Origin: Acanthaster planci
Lineage: Eukaryota
Length of the DNA: 64,000 nucleotides
Assembly (NCBI RefSeq): GCF_001949145.1
Contig: NW_019091358.1
Span: 93,984-157,983 of the forward strand
Direction: 5' to 3'
Part shown: positions 8,720 through 64,000 of the stretch, piece by piece
How positions within the stretch are numbered: the stretch's first letter is position 1
Layout of the letters: every line of letters begins with the position of its first letter
The notes under the pieces: model-generated
Databases searched by the model: none
Seen by the model: the letters and a program-made list of their open reading frames with translations, nothing else
Told to the model about the DNA's origin: nothing
Made by a program: the position numbers and the translations under genes

Positions 8720-10276
8720 GTGAGACATTTCCATGAAAGATTGATTGTAAATGTAGATATTGAAAACTATTCTGTATTCCTCTTTCTCTTGTGGTAGATT
8801 GCCAAGAATGGACAAACCTTACATGCAAAAATTGTTAATATTCAAGCCATTAGATCCTTTTGCCTCTGAAAATGACTTCCGTGGATGACGTGCGAACAGG
8901 CTCAATTTTTCCTAATTTGTTCTGCAGACTACATGGGTACTCATTTAGGAATTATATTATTTCGTTTCTGCAGTTACAATGTTAACACTATGAAAGTTAG
9001 ATGTTAAATGTTGTTTCCTGGTTAAAAGTATTCTACCCTGATTTTAACCCCGTTTTAATTGCATAGATCAAGCAAAAATGTCCATGCCGTTTTTAACAGT
9101 GTTTCAACCGAACCCACCACTCTTTGTTATTCAAGCCTTAATCCTCTCCTGGTCTATCGGCAGTCCAAATGGACAGTCACCCATTTTAACTGTGTTTCAA
9201 CAGTGTGGTGGTAGTGCCTACAAACTGCAGTGTCCCATTGAGTAAATTTACTTTTTACCTAATTAAAGAGCGGTTTGGGGGAAATGTAAATCATCTTCCT
9301 TACGTTCCACAAGTTGGAAATTGGCTTTAGTGTATATTAGTGTGCAAAGATATTTCCACACCCGTTTAGATGATAAATTCATTGATGTTTACATATTGTC
9401 ACAGCAATTTTGTACATCCCATCATTTATTAAAAAAAAAAAGATCTCACTTATGTAAAAAAAAAGGTTCGGTTCCCGCAACAGCCGTCGAAGACCAATGA
9501 AATACGTTTTACTTTTCTCGCTCTGCGATCACACTTTAATGACCATGGATTTTGTTCAACGTGTTTCTGTTATTGTTTGCTATGTTGGTACATCTGTTTG
9601 TTTGTGTTGATTTGTAAATTAAAGTGGTAGATACCATGGTTTAGAGTGTGTGAGCAAAAAGAGTCAGAACAATACTGAATGTCACTGAGAAACATTCACA
9701 TTCAAAAGCAGAATCGTGTGTGTGTGTTAAGTGCTGAGATATTTGGTACCAACTTTGCCTGAGATCCCCGAAAACAGCAGGTAGTGATTGCAATCAGAAC
9801 GTGAGAAATCAATCGCCGTGCGAGCGGGCCAAGATTTGGCTAAATTAGAGTCAATATCGGTCCCAAATCAACGGCCGGTTTGTTCACATTTTACAACACT
9901 CAGCCCGGATACCACACCTCGTCAAAGAATTATACAGACTTTGTTGAACATACCCATTAGTTTAACGTTTATAGTATCATATAATGGGTAATGTGTTTAA
10001 GATAGAGAAGGCAATGGGAATTGAGTTTATTATAAACCTTTGTCATTGAACCCACTCAATATCTCACAAAATGGCAATGAGGATGTTTAAATAGTCATAT
10101 AGAATAACAAAGGATATATTTGCTCACCTGTACAAGTAAACATTTGGCATATTGCATTGATATCTGAGCTGTTTTGGGAGTGATTTGGGGACCCTTTTTC
10201 CCGTGCTCCAACCCTTCGTTACATATTGTGCATGCCAATACATGAACATACACACGTGTATAGTCGGTGAACATTA

Positions 10277-13200
10277 TGGCGTCGGGACTCATTGGTCGAA
10301 TTGACCCATTTAACAGCAAAGAGGAGGACTGGCCAACATGTGAAGCGTCTCGAGCAGTATTTTGAAGCCAATGGAATTGTTAATGAGCGAAAAGTTTCAG
10401 CATTTATCAGCCTCATTGGATGTAAAACATACGGACTGCTCAAGAACCTCACTACTCCAGCCAAGCCATCATCCAAGTCATATGCTGAACTGATTCAGAT
10501 TTTGACAGCACATCTCGCCCCCAAACCCTTGGTGATCGCAGAGCGCTTCCGTTTCCATAAGCGAGATCAGAAGGAGGGGGAACGTATCAGCACCTACCTT
10601 GCCAAGTTACATAAACTGGCTGAACATTGCCATTTTGGCGAATACCTCGACCAGGCACTTCGTGACCGATTTGTCTGTGGCTTGCGGGCAGGTAGCATTC
10701 AAAAACGCCTACTTGCTGAAGATAAGCTGACACTAAAAAGGCAACAAAGATTGCAACGGCGATGGAAACAGCCGCTAAAGATGCCATTAAAGTTCAACAG
10801 CAGACCAATTCCGACCCGACTGTACATGTTGTAGCAAAAGCAAAACATCATGCTGCAGATGTGGCAGATCAGGACATTCTGCTGACACTTGCCGATTCAA
10901 AGATGCAACGTGTCATGCATGGGGAAAAACTGGCCACATAGCACCAGTCTGCCGTTCCAAACCTCGTTCCCAGGGCAACAAACTGCAGTCAAAGCCCAGA
11001 CAACCCCAACCTTGGCGTAAGGGAAAAGTCAAAGTTATGGAAGAAATTCCACAAACAGATGATGAAGATGAGGACATTTTGATAGCCAGAATGAGAGTAC
11101 ACAACGTAGATGGAAACAAATGTGATATGAGCACTGCTGTCTGGGTCACACTCTCCATCAACAACCAGCCAGTAAAGATGGAAGTTGACACAGGGTCAGC
11201 CATCACAATACTATCCATGGCTGACTATGAGAAATTCTTCCAGGGAGACAAGTAACACCCAACCAAGATGAAACTGCAGACTTACACGAGAGAGAAAGTC
11301 TCGCCAGCAGGGTTCTTGGAGGTGAACGTTGAGTACAACAAACAGCGGTACACTGGGAAGATCTACGTCATTGATAGTGGTGGTACCCCATTGCTTGGCC
11401 GTGACTGGCTAGCCCACATTAAATTGAACTGGCCAAAATTATTGGCTCTATCGACGGCTGTGCCCCCAACTACAGGCACGACTGAGGCCAAGCTGAAATC
11501 CCTGTTGAACGAATACCCAGAGCTTTTCACAGAGGAAATTGGTGAATTGACGGGTATCAATGGGAAACTCAACCTGAAGGAGAATGCCCAGCCGGTATTT
11601 GACAGCCAGGCAGGTACCTTATGCCTTACGCCCAAAGTGGAAGCAGAATTGACAAAACTGCAGGAACAAAATATAATTTCCCCTGTAGAGCACAGTGAAT
11701 GGGCAATCCGAATTGTTCCAGTGGCAAAACCGAATGGAGGGGTATGCATTTGTGGTGATTTTAAGGTGACGGTGAATCCAAACCTGAACATCGATCACTT
11801 CCCATTACCCAGAGTGGAAGATTTCCTTGCCACTCTCGCAGGTTGGCAGAAGTATAGCAAACTTGATTTACGGCAAGCATACCTGCACATGGTGATAAAT
11901 TCAGAATCCAAAAAATTACTCACCATAAACACCCACAAAGGTCTGTTTACCTTCAATCGCCTAGCATTTGGAGTAGCCTCTGCACCAGCAATCTGGCAGA
12001 GAACCATGGAACAACTGCTCCAAGGCATACCTGGAGTCCAGTGTATCCTAGATGACATGATTATCACAGGCCGTACTGATGAGGAACACCTCAGCAATCT
12101 GAGGAGGGTCCTTGACGTGCTCAAGCACCATGGCCTGTGCTTGAACAAAGCAAAATGTGTGTTCTTCAAGAACAAAGTGATCTTCTGTGGCCACGAGATA
12201 ACCTTTGAAGGTTTAAAGAAAGCCCAAGACAAGATCAAAGCGGTGAAAGATGCCCCTCATCCTACCAGCGTGAGGCAACTACGCTCATTCCTGGGCTTGG
12301 TGAACTACTATCACTGTTTCCTACCTAATTTGGCAACTGAACTGCATCCACTGAATGAGCTTCTCCAGAAGAGCCACAAGTGGGTGTGGACTCCTACTTG
12401 TGAGAAGGCATTTGAGAAAGCCAAGTCCTTGATCACATCAGATGAAGTTTTGACACACTATGATCCAAGCCTACCTTTGAAGCTGGCATGTGACGCCGCA
12501 CCCTATGGTCTTGGCGCTGTCATGTCACATGTCATGCCTGATGGTACCGAACGCCCAGTAGCCTGTGCGTCACGTACCTTGACGTCGGCTAAATGCAAGT
12601 ATTCCCAGATTGACAAAGAGGCACTTGCGGGGAGTAAAGAAGTTTAACCCGTACCTATCAGGACGAAAGTTCACCATGGTGACGGACCATCAACCCCTGA
12701 CCTGTATCTTCAATTCTGTGAAAAGCACTCCTGTGACTGCAGCAGCACGTCTAGCAAGATATGCAGTCTTCCTTGACAGTCATGATTACAGCATCGAATA
12801 CAAAAACACTGCAAAACACAGCAATGCTGATGGATTATCAAGATTGCCCATGAGCCAGACTGCATCAGAACCAACAGATCCTGTTGACATCCTCCACATG
12901 TCACAACTTGACACACTGCCAGTCTCCAGCAGTGACATCCGCAGGGAAATTACAAAGGACAAAACACTCAAAGTCGTCAACAGACACTGACCCAACCTTG
13001 GCAGCCTACCATAGCCGCAGAAATGAAATCGCTGTACATGATGGTTGCTTGATGTGGGGACTGTGCGTAATAATTCCTGACAAGTTGCACACACAAGTCC
13101 TGAGAGAGCTTCATGAGGGTCATCTGGGTGTTGTCAAGATGGAAACTCTCTCTCAAGGATTTGTTTGGTGGCCCGAAATTGACCACGACATTGAACAGTT

Positions 13201-14247
13201 GGTCAAGGAATGTTCCGGGTGTCAGAAAGTACAACACCCCCGCTAAAGCCCCACTACATACCTGGGAATGGCCTGTAAAACCCTGGCAAAGAATTCACAT
13301 CGACTACGAAGGTCCGTGCATGGGACAGATGTTCCTGGTAGTTGTTGATGCATACTCAAAATGGCCTGAAGTCATCCAAACTACCACCACAACATCCAGC
13401 CAGACCATTGACATCCTCAGGGGCATATTCTCACAACATGGTATCCCTGAACAACTTGTGAGTGACAATGGCCCTCAGTTCATATCGGAGGAATTTCAAA
13501 CCTTCCTGAAACGCAGTGGGGTTCGACACATTACTTCAGCCCCCATATCACCCATCAAAAAACGGGCTTGCAGAGCGTTTTGTTCAAACCTTCAAAAATG
13601 GACTGCAGTCAATGGAAGGGGAGAAAGGGATCAGTAAAGCAGAAGTTGTGCGGCTTTCTTCTTGCTTATCGGAATGCACGACATGCCACTACTGGTCATT
13701 CTCCAGCCTACCTACTCATGGAACGATACCTCCGATCGAGACTGGACATCATAAAACCGGACATACGTCAGCGTGTTGCTCATAAACTGCTTGAGCAATC
13801 CGCCAGTTGCAAATCTGTGAAGCCAACCAGAAACCTGCACAAAGGCCAACATGTGCTGGTTCGTAACTACCGAGATAGCCAGAAGTGGATCCCAGGTGTA
13901 ATCCATTGCCAAACTGGGCCCTTGTAGTACGAGGTTCTAGTCAGCCCAGACTCCATCTGGCACAGACACATTGATCAGCTTCTTGATGCCGATACTGGAA
14001 ACCACACATCTTCAACCAGCAGCCTGAGATGATCCAGCATGACCAAGTGCCCCAGATTATTCCAGACACCACTTACCAGAAGACACTGGATTCTCCAACC
14101 CCTACTCTATCCATGCAGACTCCAGCAGTCATCCATTCTAAAGCAGATCCACTGACTACTTCCAAGGGCCCAATGTCGGAGCCACCTAGCAATGAACGTC
14201 GCTACCCACAGAGGAAATGCAAACCACCAGACAGACTGGATCTCTAA
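10277..14247 (+). pseudogene. gag-pol of the Gypsy element, many frameshifts/stops
   Basis: Fragments 10292-10834, 11037-11255, 11268-12647, 12610-12990, 12884-13246, 13113-13637, 13568-13927 and 14029-14247 fall in gag-PR-RT-RH-IN order. Confidence 0.9.
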
Positions 14248-14786: not shown

Positions 14787-16893
14787 GACGGGATGGTCTA
14801 CCTCTAGGTCGATACACTGGCAAATTTGGTGCACGCAACTTTAAATTTTTGTTCACTAACAATTGTCTAGGTGACAAATAACTGTCTGTGTCACCAATTC
14901 CGTTATACACAAGATAAGAGTTTACAAGAGCAACATCAAGCAAAAATAAGAACACTTTTATACACCATATGATTGATTTCCTGACAGAACGGTGCGATGA
15001 TGCCAGCTGGTCTGCAATGTCCACACCCTTCATCCCCTCGTTGTAGTCGAGTACACACTTGGGTTTCTCCAAGGCAATGCTGTCACGTTCCGCTTGCCGG
15101 TGTCGGCCATCTCAGCTGTATGCATCGTGGACAGCATACGGACATCTTTTTTGTCTCGCCAGACAAAGGTGTGCAAGCCTTTTTTTCCAGAACGGTGAAC
15201 AACATCATCCCTTTCGAGTTTCAAGGAGCACAAGTCCTTGGGCTTGTTTTGACGATTAGTCACACACCCTTCATCCCCTCGTTGTAGTCGAGTACACACT
15301 TGGGTTTCTCCAAGGCAATGCTGTCACGTTCCGCTTGCCGGTGTTGGCCATCTCAGCTGTATGCATCGTGGACAGCATACGGACATCTTTTTTGTCTCGC
15401 CAGACAAAGGTGTGCAAGCCAGAATGGTGAACAACATCATCCCTTTCGAGTTTCAAGGAGCACAAGTCCTTGGGCTTGTTTTGACGATTAGTCTCGCCGT
15501 CCTGATGACGTTTGTCTTCTGGTCGTGCAGTTTCAGGTACAGATCTGGGCTGCTGAACCAGTTGTCCAGGAAAATGCTGTACCCTTTGCCAAGAAGATTG
15601 ACGTTCAAGTCAAGTACAATTTTCGTACTTGCCAGTCCAACAGTCTGGTCTTTACCAGTGTAAATCTTGAAGTTCCAGGTGTATCAAGTGACAACACCTG
15701 TGCTCTGGCAGACTCGACACACCTTGATGCCAAACCTTGCATGCTTCTTGGGGTTGTACTGCTTGAACTTCAGTCTCCCTTTGAATTTCCAAAGGGACTC
15801 ATCGGTAGTAATCTTGCTGGACGGAATGTAGACGGGCTTGATCTCAGCCAGTTCGTCTACCACCTGGCGGAGCTTGTAGAGTCGATCGGTCGCATCTGCA
15901 TGGCTGATATTAACGAAATGCAGATAGGACAGCAAGCCCATAAATCTGTCGCGTGGCATTGTATTAGAAAAAACAGAGTCTCAAGTATTGAGTCTCTTGT
16001 CCAGTAGGACTTCAAGTCGGGTTTCGGCATAAGTCCCATGATGATGGTCATGGACAGGAACACTGACATCTCGTGTGGTGTTGTGTCGAACCAGCTTCGC
16101 ATGTGACTTGGACTTGCTTCTGATTGACTTTCGGATGTTCAGTAGCATAGCGGTTGGTCTCATTGACAATGTGCAACGTCAGCTCTGGGGTGAAGAACTG
16201 CTTGAAGATTTCGACAGGAGTGCTGTTCTTGTCCAGTTCTTGCATTTGAACACCCGCTGTGCCTTGAAAGCCGTGTTGTCAAGTTTTCAGCAACTGTCCA
16301 TTGAATGGACGAAGAAGTCTTGACCTTCTTCTTGGCAGGCCTCGCTAACGGTGGTTGCCTGTTAGAATCGCTGTCACTAGTTTCAATTTCTGAACCATGT
16401 TCAGAGTCCGATGTGAAATCTGAACCACTAGTCGCAGTCAAAGTTTCCTCTTCACTTGAAGACATTGTGTAATGCAACTGAAGGGCCGGGAAGTGGCCAA
16501 GCAAATATATACCCAGCGCTACAGAAAATGCTGCTTTTTGACAAAACAAATAACCAATTACACTGAACAATAGCCCATCTGTATCCCAAGTGTATGGTGC
16601 TGGGGTGCTGCCCACGTGTTCCCAGCCCAGTAGAGCCGTAAACCGTAGCCCGCACACCATGTCAATGACCTGTATTCATCGCGCTCCGAGCCCACATAGA
16701 ACGTGTTGCATAAGCCTTGACCACGACCTCGAGTGATGCTCCACGGAGATTAGCCAGGGTATTCAATCAAAGACAGTAGGGTGTTCTGATGAATAAAAAA
16801 TCCCATTTACCGAGTATCAGGAGATCAACCAACTCTCCAGGTTGCGCCAGATTTCCATTCAATGCAAAGGTCCCAGTAATTACAGATGTACAC
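14787..16893 (-). mobile_element. piggyBac transposon copy 1 (degenerate, both termini missing)
   Basis: Fragments TDESL..FKGRLKFKQYNPKK.ARFGIK, FLDNWF, WRDKKDVRMLST, DYNEGMKGVDIADQ; 5' non-coding region matches copy 2. Confidence 0.9.
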
Positions 16894-17166
16894 TGAATAA
16901 AGGTTGCATGTGTGGTATGCTGCTACAGCTGTCTCCCGGTAATTAGACTTTTCTACAGGCGCAACTGTTGCCTTCTTCCAGCATGAAGTGTTGGGATAAG
17001 ATGAGCTCTTGGTCTTGTGTTCGTAGGTATATTGATGCCAAATGAAAAAAAAGTAACAGTCATTTTAGTCCAAACATTATTGGCTATGCTGACAAATATC
17101 AAACTTGCAAACAAATGCCCTGAAGTGCCCCATATTTGTTGCTTTGTCCTTTTTTATTGTATGCAG

Positions 17167-17290
17167 AGCGCCAACACTCAAGAGACTTCAGGAGTACTTG
17201 TTCTTTGTTTGGGACCCTGATTTACCAGGTGGAGAAGATGAGCCAATGAAGATCCTTGAAGAAGGGCCTTTGGACGGTGAAACATATCGT
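17167..17290 (+). CDS. LRRC9: LRRC9 internal exon (phase 2 to 0)
   Basis: tgcag|...CGT|gtaagt; encodes APTLKRLQEYLFFVWDPDLPGGEDEPMKILEEGPLDGETYR; phase joins the previous exon. Confidence 0.88.
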
Positions 17291-17328
17291 GTAAGTTCAA
17301 TTGTCAGTTGTGCACAGTTTCAGCTTAA

Positions 17329-17875
17329 CCACATGCTGCCAGGTGCTTATAAAACTGCAGTGTATATGGGGCGATTTTCAAGATTTTCAGTTTTCAAAAT
17401 TCTTCAAAAATTCATCATTTCATTTAACGGACGTTTACACCCACATGAAGGACTTTTTGATGGATACTCTAAGTTGACAGGTAACCTTCATTGACTCCTG
17501 AATATTTCAGCTAGGCCTGCAGCCTTGTAAAAAGAGCCCAGATTGTGCAGTGTTATGTAAGTGTCTTTTGTTCCCGAAACCAGCACAGTGCACTGCTGGC
17601 ATCTTTTCAATACAGGCCAGATTAACTACAGGGCTGCTGTGTGGCTCATCGTTGCGGTGGTGGAGCGCTTTTGTCCCCTGTGGTAATCCACTCTTTCTAA
17701 ATGCCCCAACCTTGGTATACTGTTTCAAAACAAGGCTGGATTATCTCCACTATTGAGAATGAAAAAATGTCGGTTATACCCAGCAACTCAGTCTTTTGTG
17801 TTGAGCATGGTTTTTGTTACAAGGCCCAGGTCTTTTGTCCCAGCTTCAGACTCCCCAGCTTCGTGTATAAAGCCT
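17329..17875 (+). mobile_element. TTAA-flanked ~550-590 bp MITE family (CCAC termini), copy a
   Basis: Begins ttaa|ccacatgctgccaggtg; colinear with 43057-43645 and inverted relative to 47502-48061 and 48597-49002. Confidence 0.7.
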
Positions 17876-27169: not shown

Positions 27170-29461
27170 AATCATTCACACTGTGAATTTTAGAAATAAA
27201 ATAACGACTTTGTAAAGAAACGTAGCCAAAAAAAAGGAAAGAAAAAAGAGAGTAGTTGCGTTACACGATTTCTTGAAATAGAGAAAACGTAAGAAAAAGA
27301 CATAAAATGGAGAGTGGTTGCATTACACGATATCTTGGAATACACATTATTGTACATGAAGTAATTGATTCAAGTATAATAAACCTTGAAGGAGTTGCAC
27401 TAAAATTTCATGTACTATTTCATTTACAATGTCTTGGAATACAGGAAATTTCATCTTGCATGGATCTTGCATGCATCTTGGACAGCATACAGGCATTTTT
27501 TTTGTCTTGCCAGACCAAGGCGAGCGAGCCTTGGTCACAGGAGTGGTGAACAACATCTTGAGTTTCAAGGAGCACAAGCCCTTGGGCATATCGAATTTTC
27601 TCACCGTCACGACGACGTTCGTCTTCTGGTCGTGTAGTTTCAAGTACAGTTCGGGGCTGCTGAACCAGTTGTCCAAGAAAATGGTGTACCCTTTGCCAAG
27701 AAGATTGGCATTCAAGTCAAGTACGATTTTCGTACTTGCCAGGCCAACAGTTTGGTCTTGACTGGTGTAAATCTTGAAGTTCCAGGTGTATCCAGGGGCA
27801 ACACCCATGCTCTGGCAGACTCTATACACCTTGATGCCAAACCTTGCATGCTTCTTGGGGTTGTACTGCTTGAACTTCATTCTCCCTTTGAATTTCCCAA
27901 GGAACTTGTCGGTAGTAATGTTGCTAGATGCAATGTAGATGGACTTGAACTCCTCGGTCAGTTCGTCTATCACCAGGTGGAGCTTGAAGAGTTGATCTGT
28001 TGTATCTGCATGGCTGTTATCGATGAAATGCAGATGGGACAGCAAGTCCATAAATCAGTCGCGGGGCATGGTATTAGGGAAAAACAAGAGTCTCAAGTAT
28101 TGAGTCTCTCATCCAGTAGGACTTCATGTCGGGTTTCGGCATCAGTCCCAGGACGATGATCATGGACAGGAACACTGACATCTTGTCTGGTGTTGTGTCG
28201 AACTAGCTTTTCATGTGACTTGGACTTGCTGCTTGACTTTTCGGGTGTTCAGCGGCATAGCGGTTGGTCTCGTTGACTATGTGCAACGTCAACTCTGGGG
28301 TGAAGAACTGCTCGAAGATTTCAACAGGAGTGCTGTTCTTGTCCATTTCTTGCACCTGAACAACCACTATGCCTTGAAAGCCGTGTCGGCGGGGGAAGTT
28401 GTCATCAGCCGTCCATTGAATGGACGAAGTCTTGACCTTCTTCTTGGCAGGCCTCATAGTGAATTCTGGAACAGCTTTCTACACTCCTGCCCTGATAATC
28501 CCACCATTGTCCAGATCTGCAGCTTTTATAATTAAATTCAATGGAAAGGGCAGGGCACTCTATTGAGTAAAGCAGTGTAAAAAGCTTCAATGCTTGCAGC
28601 ATGCCTCTCACTCCTTCGCTGTGCAGCAAAGCTTCAAGAAGCTACTGGTCCACTGAATCCAACTAGCAGTCATTTTATTTTGTTCTACTTGTGTCTGGAT
28701 GTGGGGGTAGGATCCGGCTTGGCAGTGTTTGCTCGTTACGGCAAATATCCCCGCGAAAGGCCACAGTTTCTTAGTATTTATTTTTGTAAATATCTACAAC
28801 AATTTTGCCGGGTCAAGAAATGGCCGGAGAAGACAGAGACTCAAGCTTTTCATTAAGGGGTACTTATTTCTTTTATGTACAACCAAACCTCTAAATACTT
28901 GCTGTTCGACTTTTCAGGTGTTCAACCGCATAGCGGTTGGTCTCGTTGGCAATGAGCAACATCAGCTCTGGGGTGAAGAACTACTCAAAGATTTCGACAG
29001 GAGTGCCGTTCTACTCCAGTTCTTGCACTTGAACACCCGCTGTGCCGGCAGGGGAAGTTGTCATCAAGCGTCCGTTGAGTGGACGAAGAAGTCTTGACCT
29101 TCTTGGCAGGCCTCGCTAATGGTGGTTGCCTGTTAGAATTGCTGTCACTGGTTTAAATTTCTGAACAGATTTCAATGGCATGCACAACATGTCAATGACC
29201 TGTATTCATCGCGCTGCGGGCCCACACAAAGTGCGTTGGATAAGCCCTGACAGCCGAGTCGAGCGACACTCCGCGGAGATTTCACAGGGTATTCAATCAA
29301 AGACAATACGGTGTTCTGATGAAAAAAATCCAATTTACTGGGTATCGTGGGGTCGACCAACTCTCCTAGTTGCTCTAGATTTCCATTCAATGCAAAGCTC
29401 CCAGTAATTACAAATGAACACTCTCCAGGCGCGGTGTTTGCAGTCATCCGGTGCGAAGGGG
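27170..29461 (-). mobile_element. piggyBac transposon copy 2 (degenerate, rearranged 5' part)
   Basis: ORF 27347-28051 (FKGRMKFKQYNPKK, FLDNWFSS). Terminus ccggtgcgaagggg|ttaa at 29448-29465. 5' coding piece duplicated at 28896-29166 around unrelated sequence. 3' region repeated at ~54690-55020. Confidence 0.88.
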
Positions 29462-34475: not shown

Positions 34476-34545
34476 CATCGGCTACATCGATGCCGAAGGG
34501 TTCCTCATCAAAGCGGCCCTCCGCTGGAACGACATAACTCCATTA

Positions 34546-34805
34546 GGGATGGGATCAGAAACACAGAGACCGTTCGCACGTGTTTGCACACATTCCCTTC
34601 CATTCTGCATGCCCTCCCATTCACCCCCGTTCCGAAGGGCACTTCGGAATGAGTTCCTGATCATTCTCTTGCATGAGTGATTCAGAGAGTATTGTTATGT
34701 TAATTGGCCATCCCTGTGTGTGCGAGAACAGCAGCATCACAACAAAGATGTAAAGAACATGCATACCAGCTGTTCTTGAGTCTGTTGGCTAAATGAGTGT
34801 CGACA
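34546..34805 (+). repeat. Dispersed non-coding repeat (MITE-like end); second copy inverted at 59760-60020
   Basis: gggatgggatcag..gagaccgttcgcacg...gcatgagtga.tc.gagagtatt.ttatgttaattg...cacaacaaagatg is shared between the two sites. Confidence 0.75.
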
Positions 34806-35024
34806 GCAACTGAAAACCAGTGAGTGCAAGTAACCCTATCTAGTTTATACATGACATTTTATGTGGCCTGCATCCCATGAAAACAAATAAAACGCCTGGT
34901 GCAAGTGATTCTGAATGCTATATTTTTATACTTTATTAAAGTATTGGTTGAATAAAGATTAAAAATGTACATTCAAATGATGTGGCAATAAACAACATTA
35001 TGTGCTATCTACTACTTTTTACAG

Positions 35025-43645: not shown

Positions 43646-43676
43646 ATAAAGCATTAAACTGGCCTTCCTCCTGGCC

Positions 43677-44246
43677 GTGACTACTTCCAGAAGGGGATGT
43701 GAGTCCTCGCCATTGGTGAGGGACATCTACGATGGGAGCCATACGGTGTCATGGGAGCCACATGGTATCTGCTTCATTCCCTCTGTTGACTTCCTCACTA
43801 AAAATCACACTGCTTTTTTGGATCCGCTTGACATTTTTGTACAAACAATTGCTTCACATGCAGGAGATGGTGAGGACAAACACTGGTGCCCAATTCATGT
43901 GCTAAAGTGGTATCTCGCCAAGACCAAGAATCTGATAGGTAGAGTTTCCAAACTATTTATTACCTCCACCAAACCACATCACCCAGCAGCAAAAGACACC
44001 GTAGCACACTTGATAGTCTCGGCCATTAAATTTATCAACCCAAACTGGCCATCACACCCTGATGACCCTTGCAAACACTATATCAGAGCACATGATGTTA
44101 GAGCAGTATCTACGTCTTGGTCTTACTTTTCTGGGATTTCCACTGCAGACATCTGTAAAGCTGCATGCTGTAAGTTGCCCTCTACATTCACCTCCTGCTA
44201 CCTAATGGATGTCATGCAGAGCATGAAGGACACAGAAGGAGTTTGA
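43677..44246 (+). pseudogene. DIRS tyrosine recombinase C-terminal fragment
   Basis: WCPIHVLKWYL...LFI...AKDTVA.LI..AI...RAHDVRAVSTSW...IC.AA...TFT.CY (HxxR and catalytic Y region). Confidence 0.8.
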
Positions 44247-58260: not shown

Positions 58261-58625
58261 TCTGCCCAATTGGGAAAGAGGATGTTTCTACCTATCAATT
58301 TGAAAAACAATGGTACTTGCTTGACGCAAATGTTTGTTCCACTCATATACCAAATTATTGACTGACCCAAAGCAAAGGTACAACACCCAGTAGTAGGGAC
58401 CGGTATTTACTAGAGCAGCCCCTCTTTTTCACTTCCTGGATCAGCGCGGGACTTAACCGACTTTCCAGATCAGCGCGGGACTTCCCCAAAAAAATTGTGA
58501 CCCGACTTCCCAAACCGGCAATTGCGGAGCCCCCCAGGACTTTCCACCGACGGAAAATAGCTCAACTCTGGACGATCCAGGAAAACAAAACAAAAACAAT
58601 TTCTCAACGATTTTATAAAAATCAA

Positions 58626-58871
58626 ATGACTCTAGCTTTAGTCACCAAAATCGAATACGCTAAATTAGTCGCCGCTCACGCCACGTGGTTAGTCGTCAAC
58701 GGCTACGAATCACAATGAGATTTAATCGCACAGGCAAAGTTAGACAGGCAAAACCAAAGGCACCGCATTTGTTTAATGAGAAAGACTAAGACTGGCAAAG
58801 AAGTTTACAAGCCGAATGAAATATTTATTTCCGACGATTTATGCGCCGCTAAAAAAATGAAAAATGAATAG
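58626..58871 (+). pseudogene. RNA polymerase subunit Rpb6/RpoK-like protein (one in-frame TGA at 58716-18)
   Basis: MTLALVTKIEYAKLVAAHATWL...*DLIAQAKLD.......ICLMRKTKTGKEVYKPNEIFI aligns by eye with Rpb6 TKYERARVLGTRALQI...DPLQIAMKEL...IIIRR....G..E.W...ELII. Confidence 0.5.
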
Positions 58872-58882
58872 AGACTATATAA

Positions 58883-59116
58883 ATGGAAATGATAAACCAT
58901 AAAACAAACGTGAATTGTTATTTTTGCAAAGACAAGAGAAATTCAGTTGACTTGATGAGATGTAATAACTCCACTTGCGGCGAGTGCGGCAGGTGTATAA
59001 ATTGCGTATATTGTTTAAATTCATACGACTGCCAAAATTCAAGCGCCTTGGACAGTTGCGAAGATTGTTACGATTTGATCTCACGCTGTGAGAAAAAATA
59101 TTTTATGAATGTGTGA
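58883..59116 (+). CDS. Small cysteine-repeat protein (77 aa), function unknown
   Basis: Intact ORF after TATATAAATG with CxxC periodicity (CGECGRCINCVYCLNSYDC...CEDCYDL). Confidence 0.6.
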   Translation: MEMINHKTNVNCYFCKDKRNSVDLMRCNNSTCGECGRCINCVYCLNSYDCQNSSALDSCEDCYDLISRCEKKYFMNV

Positions 59117-59759
59117 TGCCCATTCCGAGTGACAACGTATTTGACGCGTTGCACAGTAATTACGATCATAGAAAATTCACTGGCCATTCATTTTTGTTCA
59201 GACCAAGAGAATGATAAAATAGCAAGGGAATAAAATCAGGAGAGTATTCCAAATAAAGTCTCTGGGGAGCTTTCATCCAACCAAAGATTGACAGCTGACC
59301 CGACCGTCTAGTACAACAGTTGTTCCGGTAGACTTGGTTGCGTCTTCTGATTGACAGCCCGCCTTGGCATTTCTTTTCCTAACACCCTACCCGCCAAATA
59401 TAGTAATACTTCCTTCCTTGACATTTTCTATCCTAACCTAGATCACGTGTGGTTTTTATTAATTTCCACTAACACAACCGCCCAGTTATTTTATTCAGAG
59501 CACCCAACCCACCAAAAATATAAATATTTTTATCCCCCTTGGCATTTCTTTAAGGTTTTAATTTTTTTCTGCACCATGGTCTCTTTTTTATTCCGAGCAC
59601 CCAACCCGCCAATAATATTAATTCTTCCTTCCTATCCTCTGCATTTTCTATCCACACCTTGATCACTTGTGGTTTTTGTTAAGAATGTATAAAATGTGGG
59701 AAGTCGGTACATCAACGGAACAGAATGAGCATTTATAAGAGGGAAGAAAAAACATCTTA

Positions 59760-60020
59760 TCGGACCAAACACTGTTGACACTTATTGAGCCAAGGCTCAA
59801 GAACAGCTTGTATGCACGTTCTTCGCATCTTTGTTGTGACCCTGCCATTCTCGCACGCGCAAGAACGGTCAATTAACATAATAATACTCTCCGAGTCACT
59901 CATGCAAGCGAAGGGGCAGGAACGGGTTCCGAGGTGCTCTTCGGAATGGGGGTGAACGGGAGGGCGTGCAGAACGGAAGGGAACGCGTGCGAACGGTCTC
60001 TATATTTTTGATCCCGTCCC
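59760..60020 (-). repeat. Host dispersed repeat inserted into the pPolB gene
   Basis: Reverse complement of 34546-34805; begins exactly where pPolB homology stops (DKNTEF). Confidence 0.75.
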
Positions 60021-60604
60021 AAACTCGGTATTTTTATCGATATAACTCTTCATCCAAGGCGCTTGTTTAAATGACATCATGTGATGCACCTGTTTTAACT
60101 GGAGACCAAGTTCTAAATATTTCTGCAACGTTCGATAATGAACCACATATTTATTCTTGGTGTTTAAAGTCGACACGAGTTTATCTACCGAGGTACTTCA
60201 CTCACCGTGGGGTGTTAAGTCTTTTTGGTATTCTGACAGCCATTCATTTGGAATCGATATATTTTCCGGTACCAGTGGGAAGTTGTTAATAAGAGGACGT
60301 CCGTCTCGACATATAAATCGTGGTAATCTCCGAGATGACAGCAGTTGAACGTTTTCCATATGTTTTGAGCTCGATAATATTCTTACTCAGTAACAGATGC
60401 CTGCCTCAACGACCTGTAAAAAGTGGCTTGAGGAGGCAGTTGTGATTCTTCAAATTTATCAAAGGAGTTTATGTGTTCGTACGGGTAAATCCCCTTTTCT
60501 AAAAGTAAATCTGCATTATTTGGGAATCTTTCGTGGAGTAGATTAAAATCGTCGGGTGAACAATTCTTAACCAGCCGATCGAGAGATGCAGCCATGAAAT
60601 GAAA
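60021..60604 (-). pseudogene. Protein-primed DNA polymerase B remnant (KGxYPYE type), truncated at both ends and internally deleted
   Basis: FHFMAASLDRLV...KGIYPYEHINSFDKFEESQLPP..FY.SL....*EYYRAQNIWKTF...LGDYHDLYVETDVLLL is joined directly to NFPLVPE...KYVVHYRTLQKYLELG...FKQAPWMKSYIDKNT. Confidence 0.92.
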
Positions 60605-60679
60605 TGTAATTCTTGGTGTTTTTAGTGATGACTTTAATTTTACTCCTGTGCTCCCTGCATAATTAGATACGCGTCGTAT

Positions 60680-60910
60680 TTGCACCTGCTGCGTAAATTG
60701 TGTCGAGTTGGAAGGAATGATCACGTGGTGCTCGTAGACGGTAAGCATAAACAGCTGAGGCACGCGCGAGAAAACGAGCCACTGCCTGATTTAGCGACAA
60801 AACTCGACACGGATTTATACAAAAGTGGATTAATTATTGAATACGACGTTGACATTGAACATTTAATTAAAGTAGAAATCCCACCGAAGTTAATAGACGC
60901 GGCCGAATAA
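60680..60910 (+). pseudogene. 3' part of an unknown viral ORF
   Basis: Open frame ends TAA just before the next gene; 5' end lost near the pPolB breakpoint; no motif recognised. Confidence 0.35.
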
Positions 60911-60925
60911 AAATGAGAAGAATTT

Positions 60926-61670
60926 ATGACAAAGCCGGGAAAATCAGAACCATGTCAAGTATATATCGTTTCAGACGACCACAAGCATCTCAATGCCAAC
61001 AACTGGGACCCCAATGTTACCTACGGTCCCTTTGACCCGAGTAAATAAATTATTTCAAAACCTGTGATTAAAGAAGGCACCCACTTGAGTCAATGCAGCT
61101 CACCCATTTTTTACCATCACAACGGCCAAAATAAACGCCTGTTGATTATGACGAGAGAACCCTGCTACGGTATAAACCTGCTTTACAAATACAGCACTCG
61201 AGATAAAACCCCCGAAAACATCAAAGGCCGTCAAATTTGCTATCAAATACAACAACCTACGACAAACATACTCGATCACATAAATTTGGCCGTTTATAAA
61301 TTTGTTGAATCTCAAGAGTCGAATCTCCCGTCTAACACTGTAAACAAATGTATGTTAAAACAGATCCCTATGCCTCTCTATTTGATCACCAAAAAGACTC
61401 ATTGACTCGTCAAATATGGATAAATTTATCAATAAGAGATGCGACGCACAATCATTTATTTGTCCAAAAGACGTATACTACGGTACCCACTGTTCACTGT
61501 CGTGCGGCGCCAGCGTTCGGTATAGAGTGACAGCGGCAATGTTGAAAATTAGAAACGACGGACTAATTTCAAATAAGTCGGTGTTGCAAGCGTTTAGCGG
61601 ATATGGATTTGAATCTGGATCTGAATCTGGATCTGGATCTGAAACTCCCGTGAAATTAAAAGTTGATTAA
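60926..61670 (+). pseudogene. DUF2738-like (NCLDV-type) ssDNA-binding protein, one stop and two frameshifts
   Basis: FDPSK*IISKP...PIFY...RLLIMT..PCYGIN...TPENIKGRQICY, then SLFDHQKD...IWINL, then DVYYGTH....GASVRYRV and a Ser/Gly/Glu tail. Confidence 0.5.
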
Positions 61671-61706
61671 ATTTGAATACTTAACTTATGATGAAAAAAT
61701 CAATTG

Positions 61707-61738
61707 AACCTCGGTTATTCCGAGGAATAACCGAGGTT
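61707..61738. terminator. Perfect intergenic hairpin followed by a T-run
   Basis: aacctcggttattcc-ga-ggaataaccgaggtt (15-bp arms), with an A-run upstream and a T-run downstream. Confidence 0.55.
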
Positions 61739-61776
61739 AATTTTTTTGCCTTAAATAAATGGACTATTAATAAAAA

Positions 61777-62322
61777 ATGACAGACGCAGAGATTTATCAT
61801 TTAACCGGCTCATTACCTAAATGGCCAACCCCACCATCACGACCAAAAAACATGTGTGATCATTATGTAGTAGAAATAAACGACAGATATGCGTGTAAAC
61901 ATTGTGGTATAATTTTGGGGTGGGTTTCCTCTTACACCCCTGTAGACATGGGAGATAGATATTACAAGCATCACGTTTGGAAAAAAACGCCACCCCCAAA
62001 ATCGAGAAAAACTTTAAAAAAGTTTAACGTTCAATTGGAGAATGGTGAAGCGGGTGAAATAAAATATAAGTTAAATCGAGTTCTAAACGGCAAGATCTCT
62101 AGAGGTAAACTGTTGAAGGCTTTAATTGCGGTATGTTATCAAGACGTGACAAAAGAACCTACAGAAGCCGTAAAAGATCTATTTCAAGTTTCGGATAAGC
62201 ACTGGGAAAACGCCTTTGACAAATTAAACCTCGCCAAACAAGATTTCCAAAAANNNNNNNNNNNNNNNNNNNNNNNNNNNNNNNNNNNNNNNNNNNNNNN
62301 NNNNNNNCGTATAGATTGCTAA
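61777..62322 (+). CDS. TFIIB-like protein (Zn ribbon plus one cyclin-fold repeat); 3' end in gap
   Basis: CDH...YACKHCGIILG zinc ribbon and RVLNGKISRGKLLKALIAVCY, matching the TFIIB RG....A..AC helix. Confidence 0.65.
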   Translation: MTDAEIYHLTGSLPKWPTPPSRPKNMCDHYVVEINDRYACKHCGIILGWVSSYTPVDMGDRYYKHHVWKKTPPPKSRKTLKKFNVQLENGEAGEIKYKLNRVLNGKISRGKLLKALIAVCYQDVTKEPTEAVKDLFQVSDKHWENAFDKLNLAKQDFQKXXXXXXXXXXXXXXXXXXRIDC

Positions 62323-62377
62323 ACAAGATTTTTCAAAATGTATAGATTGACCAAACAAGATTTTTCAAAACGTATAT
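62234..62377 (+). repeat. 31-32 bp tandem repeat around gap 62254-62307
   Basis: Units cgtatagattgctaaacaagatttttcaaaa (62308-38) and tgtatagattgaccaaacaagatttttcaaaa (62339-70), with a partial unit before the gap. Confidence 0.75.
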
Positions 62378-62383
62378 AATAAA

Positions 62384-63536
62384 ATGGAGACTCACACGTT
62401 TTACTTAACCGAGAGCGAGCAGACGTTTAAATTGAAAGATGTCCTTAAAAACACCAAAGGCGACAAAGTCGTCCGAGTAAAGAATATTCAGTTTGAAGCT
62501 GGATATTTTAACGTAACAAAAGCGGCTGAAATTGAGTGGGATACAAACTTGGACGCTAGGCCCGCGGGGGTCCGTGGCGAACGACCGCCTGGAATACCTT
62601 CAGAGGAAAGAACGGAAGTATCTCCCAATTCAGAATTAGTACAAACAGCTAAAACCAGATTGATCCCAGCAAATAAAAAAGGCACTTTAGCAGAAGAAAT
62701 CAGCATCATCGCTGAGGAAATTGAGCAGCTAAACCAAGAAATCGCAACTTTGGAAGAGCAGTTAAACCAAAAACAACCATTAGAAACGCGAGCTCGTTTA
62801 GCTTATGATATCAACGATAAAAAAGTCAAATCAGCTTCACTGCTCGAGGGGCAAAGACAAGCCTTGGATGAAATTTATGAAGGGAATCCCCCAGCTCAAC
62901 ATACAATAAACTCCCCCGTACAACCCACGAGACCCAGAAGAGAATTAATTAAAAGACTTTTTTTGACGGGGCTAACAGAACTTATATACGATAGACTTCA
63001 TTCTTGAAGCTCATCTCAACCATTACCCGAGAGTAGGAAGCATCGTGGTATCCCCCGGTTATTATAACATGGACTGGTTTCACTTTTTGTTAAACTCGAT
63101 TCCAGGCGTTTCTTTTAAGGTTCACTCAGAATCTAAAAGGGTGACTTTGGCCATTACGGACCCCAATCTCAAGTTGCAACTAAATAAAGAAGTGTCTAAG
63201 CCATTGAACCTACCCAAAATAAAACTTTTACCCAACGTCATTTATGAAGGCAAGTACCATTTAAACCCCTTGAAACTCACGTTTATTCATTGCAAACAAT
63301 TAAATACATTTGACAACTTTTACAACGGGCAGTCTTCAGACTTGCTATACGTGATTGCTACCAAGCCTTGCACCTCAACACTCGTGACGTGTAAAACGTC
63401 TAAAAAGTTAATACACAGAAACATCAGTGAATTGACTTTTTCTGTTAAAAACGATCGAGGTGAGCTCTTGAATAATATCGGCAAAATATTAATCAAGTTA
63501 GACATTTTAAAAAACGTGTATATAATAAAAAGATGA
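62384..63536 (+). pseudogene. Minor capsid protein (penton)-like, frameshifted near 62960-63000, with an internal coiled-coil insertion
   Basis: N-terminal beta-strand region to GYFNVT; C-terminal VSPGYYN...FIHCKQL...FYNGQSSDLL...ISELTFSVKNDRGELL....I.IKLDI fits the Polinton penton pattern. Confidence 0.7.
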
Positions 63537-64000
63537 CGACTAACGTATACCCAGATTTAAGTAAACACCCCGATTTGACTTTAAACTCGGCCAAACAAGC
63601 GGAGACTAAAATTTATTGCCTTCGAAAGATCGAAGAAATTAAATCTCGTATCCAAAGAGAACGCGACGTGCGGAAAACTACCTACAAAAAGATTAAACAG
63701 GTTACGTAGAGTATGGTGTAGATGCACTGGGCGCGACCTCAGCAGCCGTCGCAATTCCCGCCAATTGGGGCATCGTTACCGGACCCGTCGGACTTGTGAT
63801 GGAAGGCATCGCTATCGGTGTGTTGGATGTTTACGCTTCGCTAAAATATGCCAGTCGCCAATTAACTCACAAAACTTAAAAGCACGACTGAATTCGAATA
63901 TTTGCGGACGCTAAATTAAACACGATCGAGGAATACGTATCTCACCCGATTGAAGATGGTGATATATCCTAGGAGGAATTTGTACTCATTTTATCCGAGA
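63533..64000 (+). pseudogene. Conserved Polinton membrane-helix protein (partial, disrupted)
   Basis: VYPDL...YCLRKIEEI...ERDVR...YKK, hydrophobic GVDALGATSAAVA...GPVGLVMEGIAIGVL, then KHD*IRIFADAKLNTI...DGDIS*EEFVLILSE. Confidence 0.7.

Follow-up and report, generated by a model that had tools for sequence, protein, structure and literature searches.

A one-repeat TFIIB homologue in a Maverick-like element of Acanthaster planci, predicted to be a minimal adaptor for host Pol II

A Maverick-like element in the genome of Acanthaster planci carries a gene for a TFIIB homologue with a single cyclin-fold repeat. The likely source of the gene is a compact giant-virus TFIIB, and we predict, with a probability of roughly 0.55, that its product serves host Pol II as a minimal, activating adaptor. 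The gene lies in a 64,000-nucleotide stretch of DNA, analysed as a whole and referred to here as the window, and belongs to a family whose homology to TFIIB is close to certain. Because the family lacks the second repeat and most of the reader and linker, two defining features of TFIIB, its proteins are best described as TFIIB homologues of reduced build and not as canonical members. The features discussed below are collected in Table 1.

Table 1. Features of the TFIIB-like gene and of the element around it (positions are those of the window; residues are those of the predicted protein)
Feature	Positions	Strand	Basis or remark
(AGT)2 motif of Maverick type at the element's left end	58389..58394	+	
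Subterminal pair of 24-bp direct repeats	58431..58483	+	
Broken fragments resembling a protein-primed DNA polymerase	60003..60640	-	by resemblance; no library match
Inverted repeat lying 34 bp ahead of the TFIIB-like ATG, with arms of 20 bp (90% complementary) and a loop of 2 nt	61702..61743		
AT-rich, TATA-like stretch abutting the TFIIB-like ATG	61763..61776	+	pattern written post hoc
One-repeat TFIIB-like ORF, 159 codons, intronless, open into the gap	61777..62253	+	frame, homologues, fold, profile
Zinc ribbon, C27-x-H29 ... C40-x-x-C43-G44	61855..61908	+	motif; strands in both models
Single cyclin-fold repeat, equivalent to TFIIB repeat 1	61999..62250	+	helices 75-82, 92-103, 111-125, 129-136, 140-158
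GKISRGK loop	62089..62109	+	R109-G110-K111 aligned to human K152-G153-R154
Assembly gap, 54 N, hiding the stop codon of this TFIIB-like copy	62254..62307		
32-bp tandem repeat, 2.2 copies, from the gap to before the next start codon (62384)	62308..62376	+	
Frame-shifted gene resembling the Maverick minor capsid (penton) protein	62384..63536	+	by resemblance; no library match
Broken gene resembling adintovirus GasderminX	63536..64000	+	by resemblance; no library match of note

The gene and the element that carries it

The TFIIB-like frame begins at the ATG at 61777 and has 159 codons; as an earlier note on this DNA had stated, it stays open up to the assembly gap. Its end had been placed at 62322, which holds only if the 54-N gap keeps the frame, the sequenced frame itself stopping at 62253; beyond the gap, a stop follows after 1, 4 or 11 codons, depending on the frame. 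If the size of the gap is roughly right, a second repeat of ~90 residues cannot fit after 62253. Other copies diverge from this one at 62213 and 62243, the places where contigs and reads have loose ends, so the final residues before the gap may be peculiar to this copy. The chance of an open frame of 159 codons is P = 3e-5 per start, and as the window has an estimated thousands of stop-to-stop intervals, the length of the ORF is by itself weak evidence of a gene; it is the homologues, together with a codon-position bias between copies, that mark 61777-62253 as one. The suggestion that this frame differs from decayed neighbours is true in part: the polymerase-like pieces lie in three frames, a frame change occurs at ~63000 and stops are present past 63536, whereas the ORF at 62384-63004 is likewise open (207 codons), and the TFIIB-like frame is not the sole open one. 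Upstream of the gene, the hairpin at 61702-61743 sits between the preceding ORF and the TFIIB-like gene and brings to mind the 3'-end hairpins of mimiviruses and virophages, and a 6-bp tandem repeat at 61599-61641 encodes the Gly/Ser/Glu run with which the preceding ORF ends.

The polymerase-like, penton-like and GasderminX-like pieces are labelled by resemblance. None of them has a library match of note, no viral locus was found for the penton-like ORF in the viral contigs, and integrase, ATPase and major capsid genes were not seen in the 5.6 kb of the element that lie inside the window. The element is called 'Maverick-like' and not a proven Maverick. A Maverick setting is very likely. The (AGT)2 sequence at its left end is the commonest Maverick end motif according to PMC8097293, and GasderminX is a gene class described for adintovirus (PMC8502044). 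The first gene past the element end (58883-59116, +) is a 77-aa Cys-rich ORF with CxxC repeats and a weak PHROG match (E 0.0095), and the penton-like ORF (62384-63004, +) has a long probable coiled-coil segment, with weak matches to leucine-zipper-type Pfam entries, between recognisable N- and C-terminal parts. AT-rich stretches similar to that before the TFIIB-like gene abut the ATGs at 58883, 62384 and 63536; a pattern scan recovered only 2 of these 4 stretches and gave 5 matches in the window vs 0.8 expected.

The element is a dispersed multi-copy family. Four RNA reads leave the window at 58391, and the summed depth of contigs climbs from tens to thousands inside the element; on 58300-62253 each DNA run yields 1,746-2,606 contigs, mostly at 90-95% identity or lower and from two organisms, and the gene region is partly present in 20 of the 24 runs listed (8 studies). 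The polymerase-like stretch has a lower depth and is skipped by joints from 59072/59073 to 60680 in all three DNA runs, and may therefore be an insertion in this copy. The interval concerned, 59074-60679, is ~1.6 kb long here and holds 49-bp repeats beside the polymerase-like relic. Several other copies have these joints, or further ones from 58933 and 59045 to ~60680, so that in them a single gene may comprise both the Cys-rich ORF (58883) and the frames that follow 60680. Elsewhere in the window no long intact gene is present; the fragments there are presumably pieces of retrotransposons and DNA transposons, as in an animal genome, and those at 10271-13924, 15250-17500, 27350-28160 and 43650-44243 resemble parts of a Gypsy-type retrotransposon, of piggyBac-like transposases and of a tyrosine-recombinase element. 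An inverted match of ~260 bp (80% identical) between 59772-60023, within the element, and the far-off 34543-34806 represents a separate small repeat.

The differences between copies, of which 40 of 165 are listed, fall on codon positions 1, 2 and 3 as 13, 5 and 22 (p 0.004 vs one third), this third-position bias being a proxy taken from a tool-chosen subset without a control gene. Among the differences listed, 20 of the 32 that vary between copies are at third positions, as are 2 of the 8 that are nearly fixed against this copy, a contrast that is not significant (Fisher p 0.11). The pattern fits purifying selection in the history of the family combined with drift in this copy. In one raw run (X20, guessed to be RNA), 47 of 11.05 million reads fall on the TFIIB-like gene, about equally in both directions, none at 99% identity or more and one at 95-99%, a result compatible both with diverged copies expressed at a low level and with carry-over of DNA. 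The copy studied here is itself probably an inactive relic.

Build and predicted fold of the protein

Both parts of the protein that the earlier note had recognised, a CxH...CxxCG zinc ribbon and only one cyclin-like repeat, are present. The ribbon reads C27-D-H29 and C40-K-H-C43-G44, and its first zinc pair is one residue shorter than Cx2[CH], as in 6/6 compact viral TFIIBs. Residues 105-120 read GKISRGKLLKALIAVC and end in C120. The RG loop is among the best-conserved parts of the family (K[IVM][ST]RG in 7/9 proteins); its equivalent in TFIIB reads the DNA downstream of TATA. The position of human R169 is basic in just two of the eight rows of the profile A3 alignment that reach it, which makes TBP binding doubtful.

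The family was assembled from the protein of this copy (P0001, 159 residues), which alone found one relative (P0002, 59% identity) and had no TFIIB match in Pfam, NCBIfam, PHROGs, PDB sequences, phages or plasmids. A two-sequence profile gave 9 matches among 1.84 billion representatives of any length, 5 of them relatives; P0008 and P0010-12, also among the nine, are C2H2 zinc-finger proteins and were dropped. With a six-sequence profile, 7 matches were obtained among 582 candidates (lengths 59-279 only), bringing in three further clusters with 17, 1 and 6 members, and JGI/IMG calls one of the 17 TFIIB/Brf1. Pfam PF08271, the ribbon entry, appeared on 2/9 family members, with P0005 at E 0.00097, and P0006 matched PF00382 at E 0.0025, both under the cut-off. 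Family proteins are mostly 130-175 aa long and reach 231 where an N-terminal extension is present. One subgroup (P0013, P0018, P0020) has a CxxC first zinc pair and ~85 additional N-terminal residues, including a KKKYLVVAxxYF segment, which are possibly another helical domain. No homologous locus was found in the viral contigs, where a scan for TFB likewise gave nothing, and pNRC100 has no TFB; the ESM Atlas offered no TFIIB lead, its best scores (0.87 and 0.85) belonging to ribbon-helix-helix or unnamed clusters. The sole match in metagenome contigs, L088 (29 residues), lies out of frame over a bacterial gene and was discarded as a chance match.

We hold the one-repeat build of the family with high confidence, with the caveat that the gap may exceed its stated length and that the homologue contigs are short (503-5,175 bases). 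One cyclin fold is predicted, and 11 relatives (P0005, P0006, P0007, P0009, P0013-16, P0020, P0024 and P0030) stop directly after helix 5 and thus directly after repeat 1, which argues that the build is real; P0002 and P0017-19 stop earlier and look like fragments. From the RG to the end the family has 51-64 residues, vs 103-178 in two-repeat proteins, and the second repeat is absent. Most of the B-reader and B-linker is missing as well, with 62-69 residues from the last ribbon Cys to the RG (5/10 proteins measurable by pattern) vs 115 in human TFIIB and 124 in haloarchaeal proteins (76/80), and with a block of gaps in the alignment.

A model built from the single sequence has a pLDDT of 42.5; its VIA matches are generic helical, and Foldseek found nothing at E<=1e-3, although 6 of the 50 matches listed are named TFIIB or TFB. 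With a 12-sequence alignment the mean pLDDT is 64, with block means of 69-90 across residues 91-159, and the model has a low-confidence linker (52-77), five helices and a cyclin fold at 71-159. Three ribbon strands at 31-49 occur in both models. Against viral models (BFVD), Foldseek gave 7 matches at E<=1e-3. Five carry the name TFIIB and come from two marseilleviruses, two iridoviruses and one mimivirus; rank 1 is an uncharacterised iridovirus protein (E 8e-6), one further match is unnamed, and none of the 50 BFVD matches listed bears the name VLTF3. Against the PDB there was no match at E<=1e-3; the first 29 ranks are taken throughout by chains from transcription-initiation complexes, read as TFIIB, TFB or Brf from entry titles and chain letters, and structural identity to these cellular chains is <=16%. 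VIA superposed residues 69-159 on residues 120-219 of yeast TFIIB (Z 8.9, rmsd 3.7, 90 aligned) and on residues 105-205 of human TFIIB (Z 8.7, rmsd 3.7, 89 aligned), but it ties TFIIB with cyclins (cyclin F likewise has Z 8.9), and such Z values are middling for helical domains. It is the predicted structure that assigns the cyclin fold, and the preceding ribbon and the sequence that assign TFIIB.

Relation to viral and cellular TFIIBs

The gene is probably of viral origin. Profile A3 matched six ORFs in 5 of 11 giant-virus records (E 5e-10 to 1e-5, 22.9-36.9 bits), a biased sample in that the records were chosen with a capsid motif (first 80 of 125 loci); the matches extend from the ribbon into the repeat and coincide in place with those of PF00382, and all six ORFs score above the Pfam TFIIB cut-off. 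On 80 other giant-virus TFIIBs, likewise a biased sample (the first 80 of 119 loci, chosen with a motif), the same profile reached 23.1 bits at most, with a median of 1.65. The corresponding values for 80 haloarchaeal TFBs are 17.4 and 11.6, human TFIIB, the top PDB sequence match, scores 15.9 bits (E 0.087), and 0/7 VLTF3 proteins rise above -2.5 bits. In 8 other giant-virus records A3 gave one weak match (E 0.003), to a long ORF of locus L208 that was rejected as a TFIIB by its length; since the profile missed the TFIIBs of these 8 records, the search is insensitive.

The first zinc pair and the linker point the same way. The distance from the last ribbon Cys to the RG is 68-72 residues in the compact viral proteins (6/6) and has a median of 114 (range 61-134) in 78 of the 80 other giant-virus TFIIBs listed, so that the linkers of the family and of the compact viral TFIIBs are ~45-50 residues short vs other TFIIBs. 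A CxH first pair is present in 4/5 family and 6/6 compact viral proteins, vs 0/78 of the other giant-virus TFIIBs (listed) and 0/76 haloarchaeal ones. Fold search, profile scores, CxH and short linker together place the protein closer to compact TFIIBs of the irido- and marseille-type than to cellular TFIIB, as the earlier note had proposed. Its picture of the build needs amending: the protein is TFIIB-like with one repeat, but the compact viral TFIIBs read here keep two. From the RG to the end these have 152-156 residues (other giant-virus TFIIBs 155-178 among those listed, haloarchaeal TFBs 103-149), so the one-repeat form of the family is a further reduction.

Alignment of profiles with hhalign gave 93.5% to archaeal TFB and 91.5% to the compact viral L344 over 116 columns, vs 28% to VLTF3, over 27 ribbon columns only. 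Trees of 38 and 37 rows, with and without P0003, included 17/80 NCLDV and 5/80 haloarchaeal proteins plus P0004 and had no eukaryotic TFIIB rows. The family forms one group in them (support 100/99); its union with the compact viral TFIIBs has support of 43/25, with alternatives at p-AU 0.39 and 0.36 that are not rejected, and a mixture-model tree is a polytomy on a long branch.

Proposed role, rival readings and meaning

Human TFIIB uses its ribbon to recruit Pol II and its B-reader and linker to stabilise the open strands, and its residues 169, 177, 188, 195, 205, 208, 243, 246, 247 and 249 contact TBP (PMC7111264). The last five of these ten listed contacts are lost with repeat 2; the ribbon and repeat 1 are kept. 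The family ribbon would dock on the polymerase as that of TFIIB does, the repeat with its basic RG loop would hold promoter DNA, and the adaptor would in this way bring the polymerase, most likely host Pol II, to the AT-rich promoters of the element at four start codons. Lacking most of the B-reader and B-linker, it would give no start-site guidance and would not hold the bubble; from these losses and that of repeat 2 it follows that the protein would likely act at AT-rich promoters that melt readily, or else assist host TBP-TFIIB, a possible role akin to that of the truncated TFB3 in Sulfolobus. A bolder version, which we regard as tentative, proposes that one lineage of animal Mavericks took a TFIIB from an irido/marseille-like giant virus and pared it to ~130 working residues, yielding a eukaryote-virus counterpart of archaeal TFB3. 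Although it has no B-reader, B-linker or repeat 2, this protein would redirect host Pol II to viral promoters that abut TATA, possibly with no need of TBP.

A protein so reduced could instead be a dominant-negative decoy, occupying the TFIIB site on host Pol II and dampening host transcription or defence. The loss of most of the B-reader and B-linker and of repeat 2, and with them of bubble stabilisation and half of the listed TBP contacts, would suit such a role, as would the poorly conserved R169-equivalent. We consider it unlikely, however, since the element itself presumably needs Pol II, since a pure sink would not need the RG loop that the family conserves so well, and since the one studied truncated TFB is an activator (PMC6101594). 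Less probable again is that the protein serves, in the manner of virophages, not host Pol II but the RNA polymerase of some large DNA virus infecting the same cell. Such a role agrees with the short linker and CxH that the protein shares with its nearest relatives, viral TFIIBs, with the AT-rich stretches that adjoin the ATGs and with the hairpin upstream of the gene; yet Mavericks are taken to be nuclear, and no helper virus is known here. Moreover, some viruses that have no RNA polymerase of their own, the ariadnaviruses, keep TFIIB nevertheless (10.64898/2026.08.29.747986), a precedent for use on the host enzyme.

Two further readings concern the identity of the gene itself. That it is a truncated retrocopy or capture of host TFIIB or Brf, carried as cargo, would account for its being intronless and for human TFIIB being the best PDB sequence match, and the rows of the trees were viral, haloarchaeal and family, without the eukaryotic TFIIBs that this origin calls for. 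It is nevertheless very improbable, as with the same profile a compact viral TFIIB reaches 36.9 bits and human TFIIB 15.9, cellular chains are at most 16% identical in the structural comparison, and CxH and the short linker are common to viral, not human, TFIIB. That the gene encodes an A2L-like late factor (VLTF3) or an unrelated protein with a zinc ribbon is largely refuted. VLTF3 is known from polintoviruses (PMC11131425), one family member touches PF08792 (E 0.18), and A3 touched one VLTF3 locus over the ribbon region (E 0.04). Against this stand the A3 scores of the VLTF3 proteins, the confinement of the hhalign match to the ribbon, the lack of any PF04947 (Pox_VLTF3) match at E<=1 among 9 family members, and the Foldseek and VIA fold matches, which are TFIIBs; by bits and hhalign alike the best matches are neither VLTF3 nor unrelated ribbons.

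TFIIB homologues as such are already known: they are standard in giant viruses and present in archaeal mobile elements. The nearest known relatives of the family are the compact TFIIBs of Nucleocytoviricota, represented by BFVD entries from an iridovirus, marseillevirus, orpheovirus, ascovirus and pithovirus and by loci L341-L346 of giant-virus bins. In common with the family, these have a CxH...CxxCG ribbon, a linker of 62-72 residues and a K-I-x-R-G loop, after which comes a helix that contains a conserved Cys. Unlike the family copy studied here, which lies in a Maverick-like element, L341-L346 occur in giant-virus bins, are 259-300 aa long and keep the second repeat; all five bins with these loci carry an NCLDV capsid gene. 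One bin, G018 (L345, L346, L347), may hold mixed genomes, having several capsid genes beside two compact TFIIBs. With eukaryotic TFIIB (and Brf1/Brf2) the family shares the order of a ribbon and then a cyclin fold, the latter superposing on repeat 1, with equivalents of G153 and C163 kept; it differs in a linker ~50 residues shorter, the absence of repeat 2, CxH in place of CxxH/CxxC and an identity of <=16%. Crenarchaeal TFB3 is a truncated TFB that keeps the ribbon, is without the C-terminal helix-turn-helix DNA-binding part and activates together with TBP and full-length TFB1, being cellular and induced by DNA damage (PMC6101594). The likeness to the family, judged from this description, is one of build, a truncated TFB with its ribbon kept, whereas the C-terminal part of TFB3 is described in the same source as a coiled coil; the likeness is probably convergent.

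Among Polinton-like elements, VLTF3 and, once, a TBP-like gene have been reported for polintoviruses and MELD viruses (PMC11131425, PMC8502044). These are, like the present gene, transcription genes with giant-virus counterparts, but they belong to protein families different from TFIIB. The ariadnaviruses are nucleocytoviricots and not Mavericks, and their likeness lies in the presence of TFIIB in a virus without its own polymerase. Neither a TFIIB in a Maverick nor a one-repeat family was found in the literature searched, where unseen supplements or Repbase could hold an annotation. The passages covered of 10.1101/2022.05.25.493380, PMC8097293, PMC11502894, PMC6563490 and 10.64898/2026.06.19.733378 report no TFIIB in a Maverick, and those of PMC11131425 and PMC8502044 do not mention TFIIB.

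Of the transcription factors that may switch on Maverick genes, those that we found reported are VLTF3 and the one TBP-like gene. A TFIIB in a Maverick would be another instance of genes passing between giant viruses and Mavericks, and would point to direct control of host Pol II. The family is also a natural minimal TFIIB, with which it becomes testable whether B-reader, B-linker, second repeat and TBP contacts are dispensable and whether the solution found by TFB3 evolved twice.
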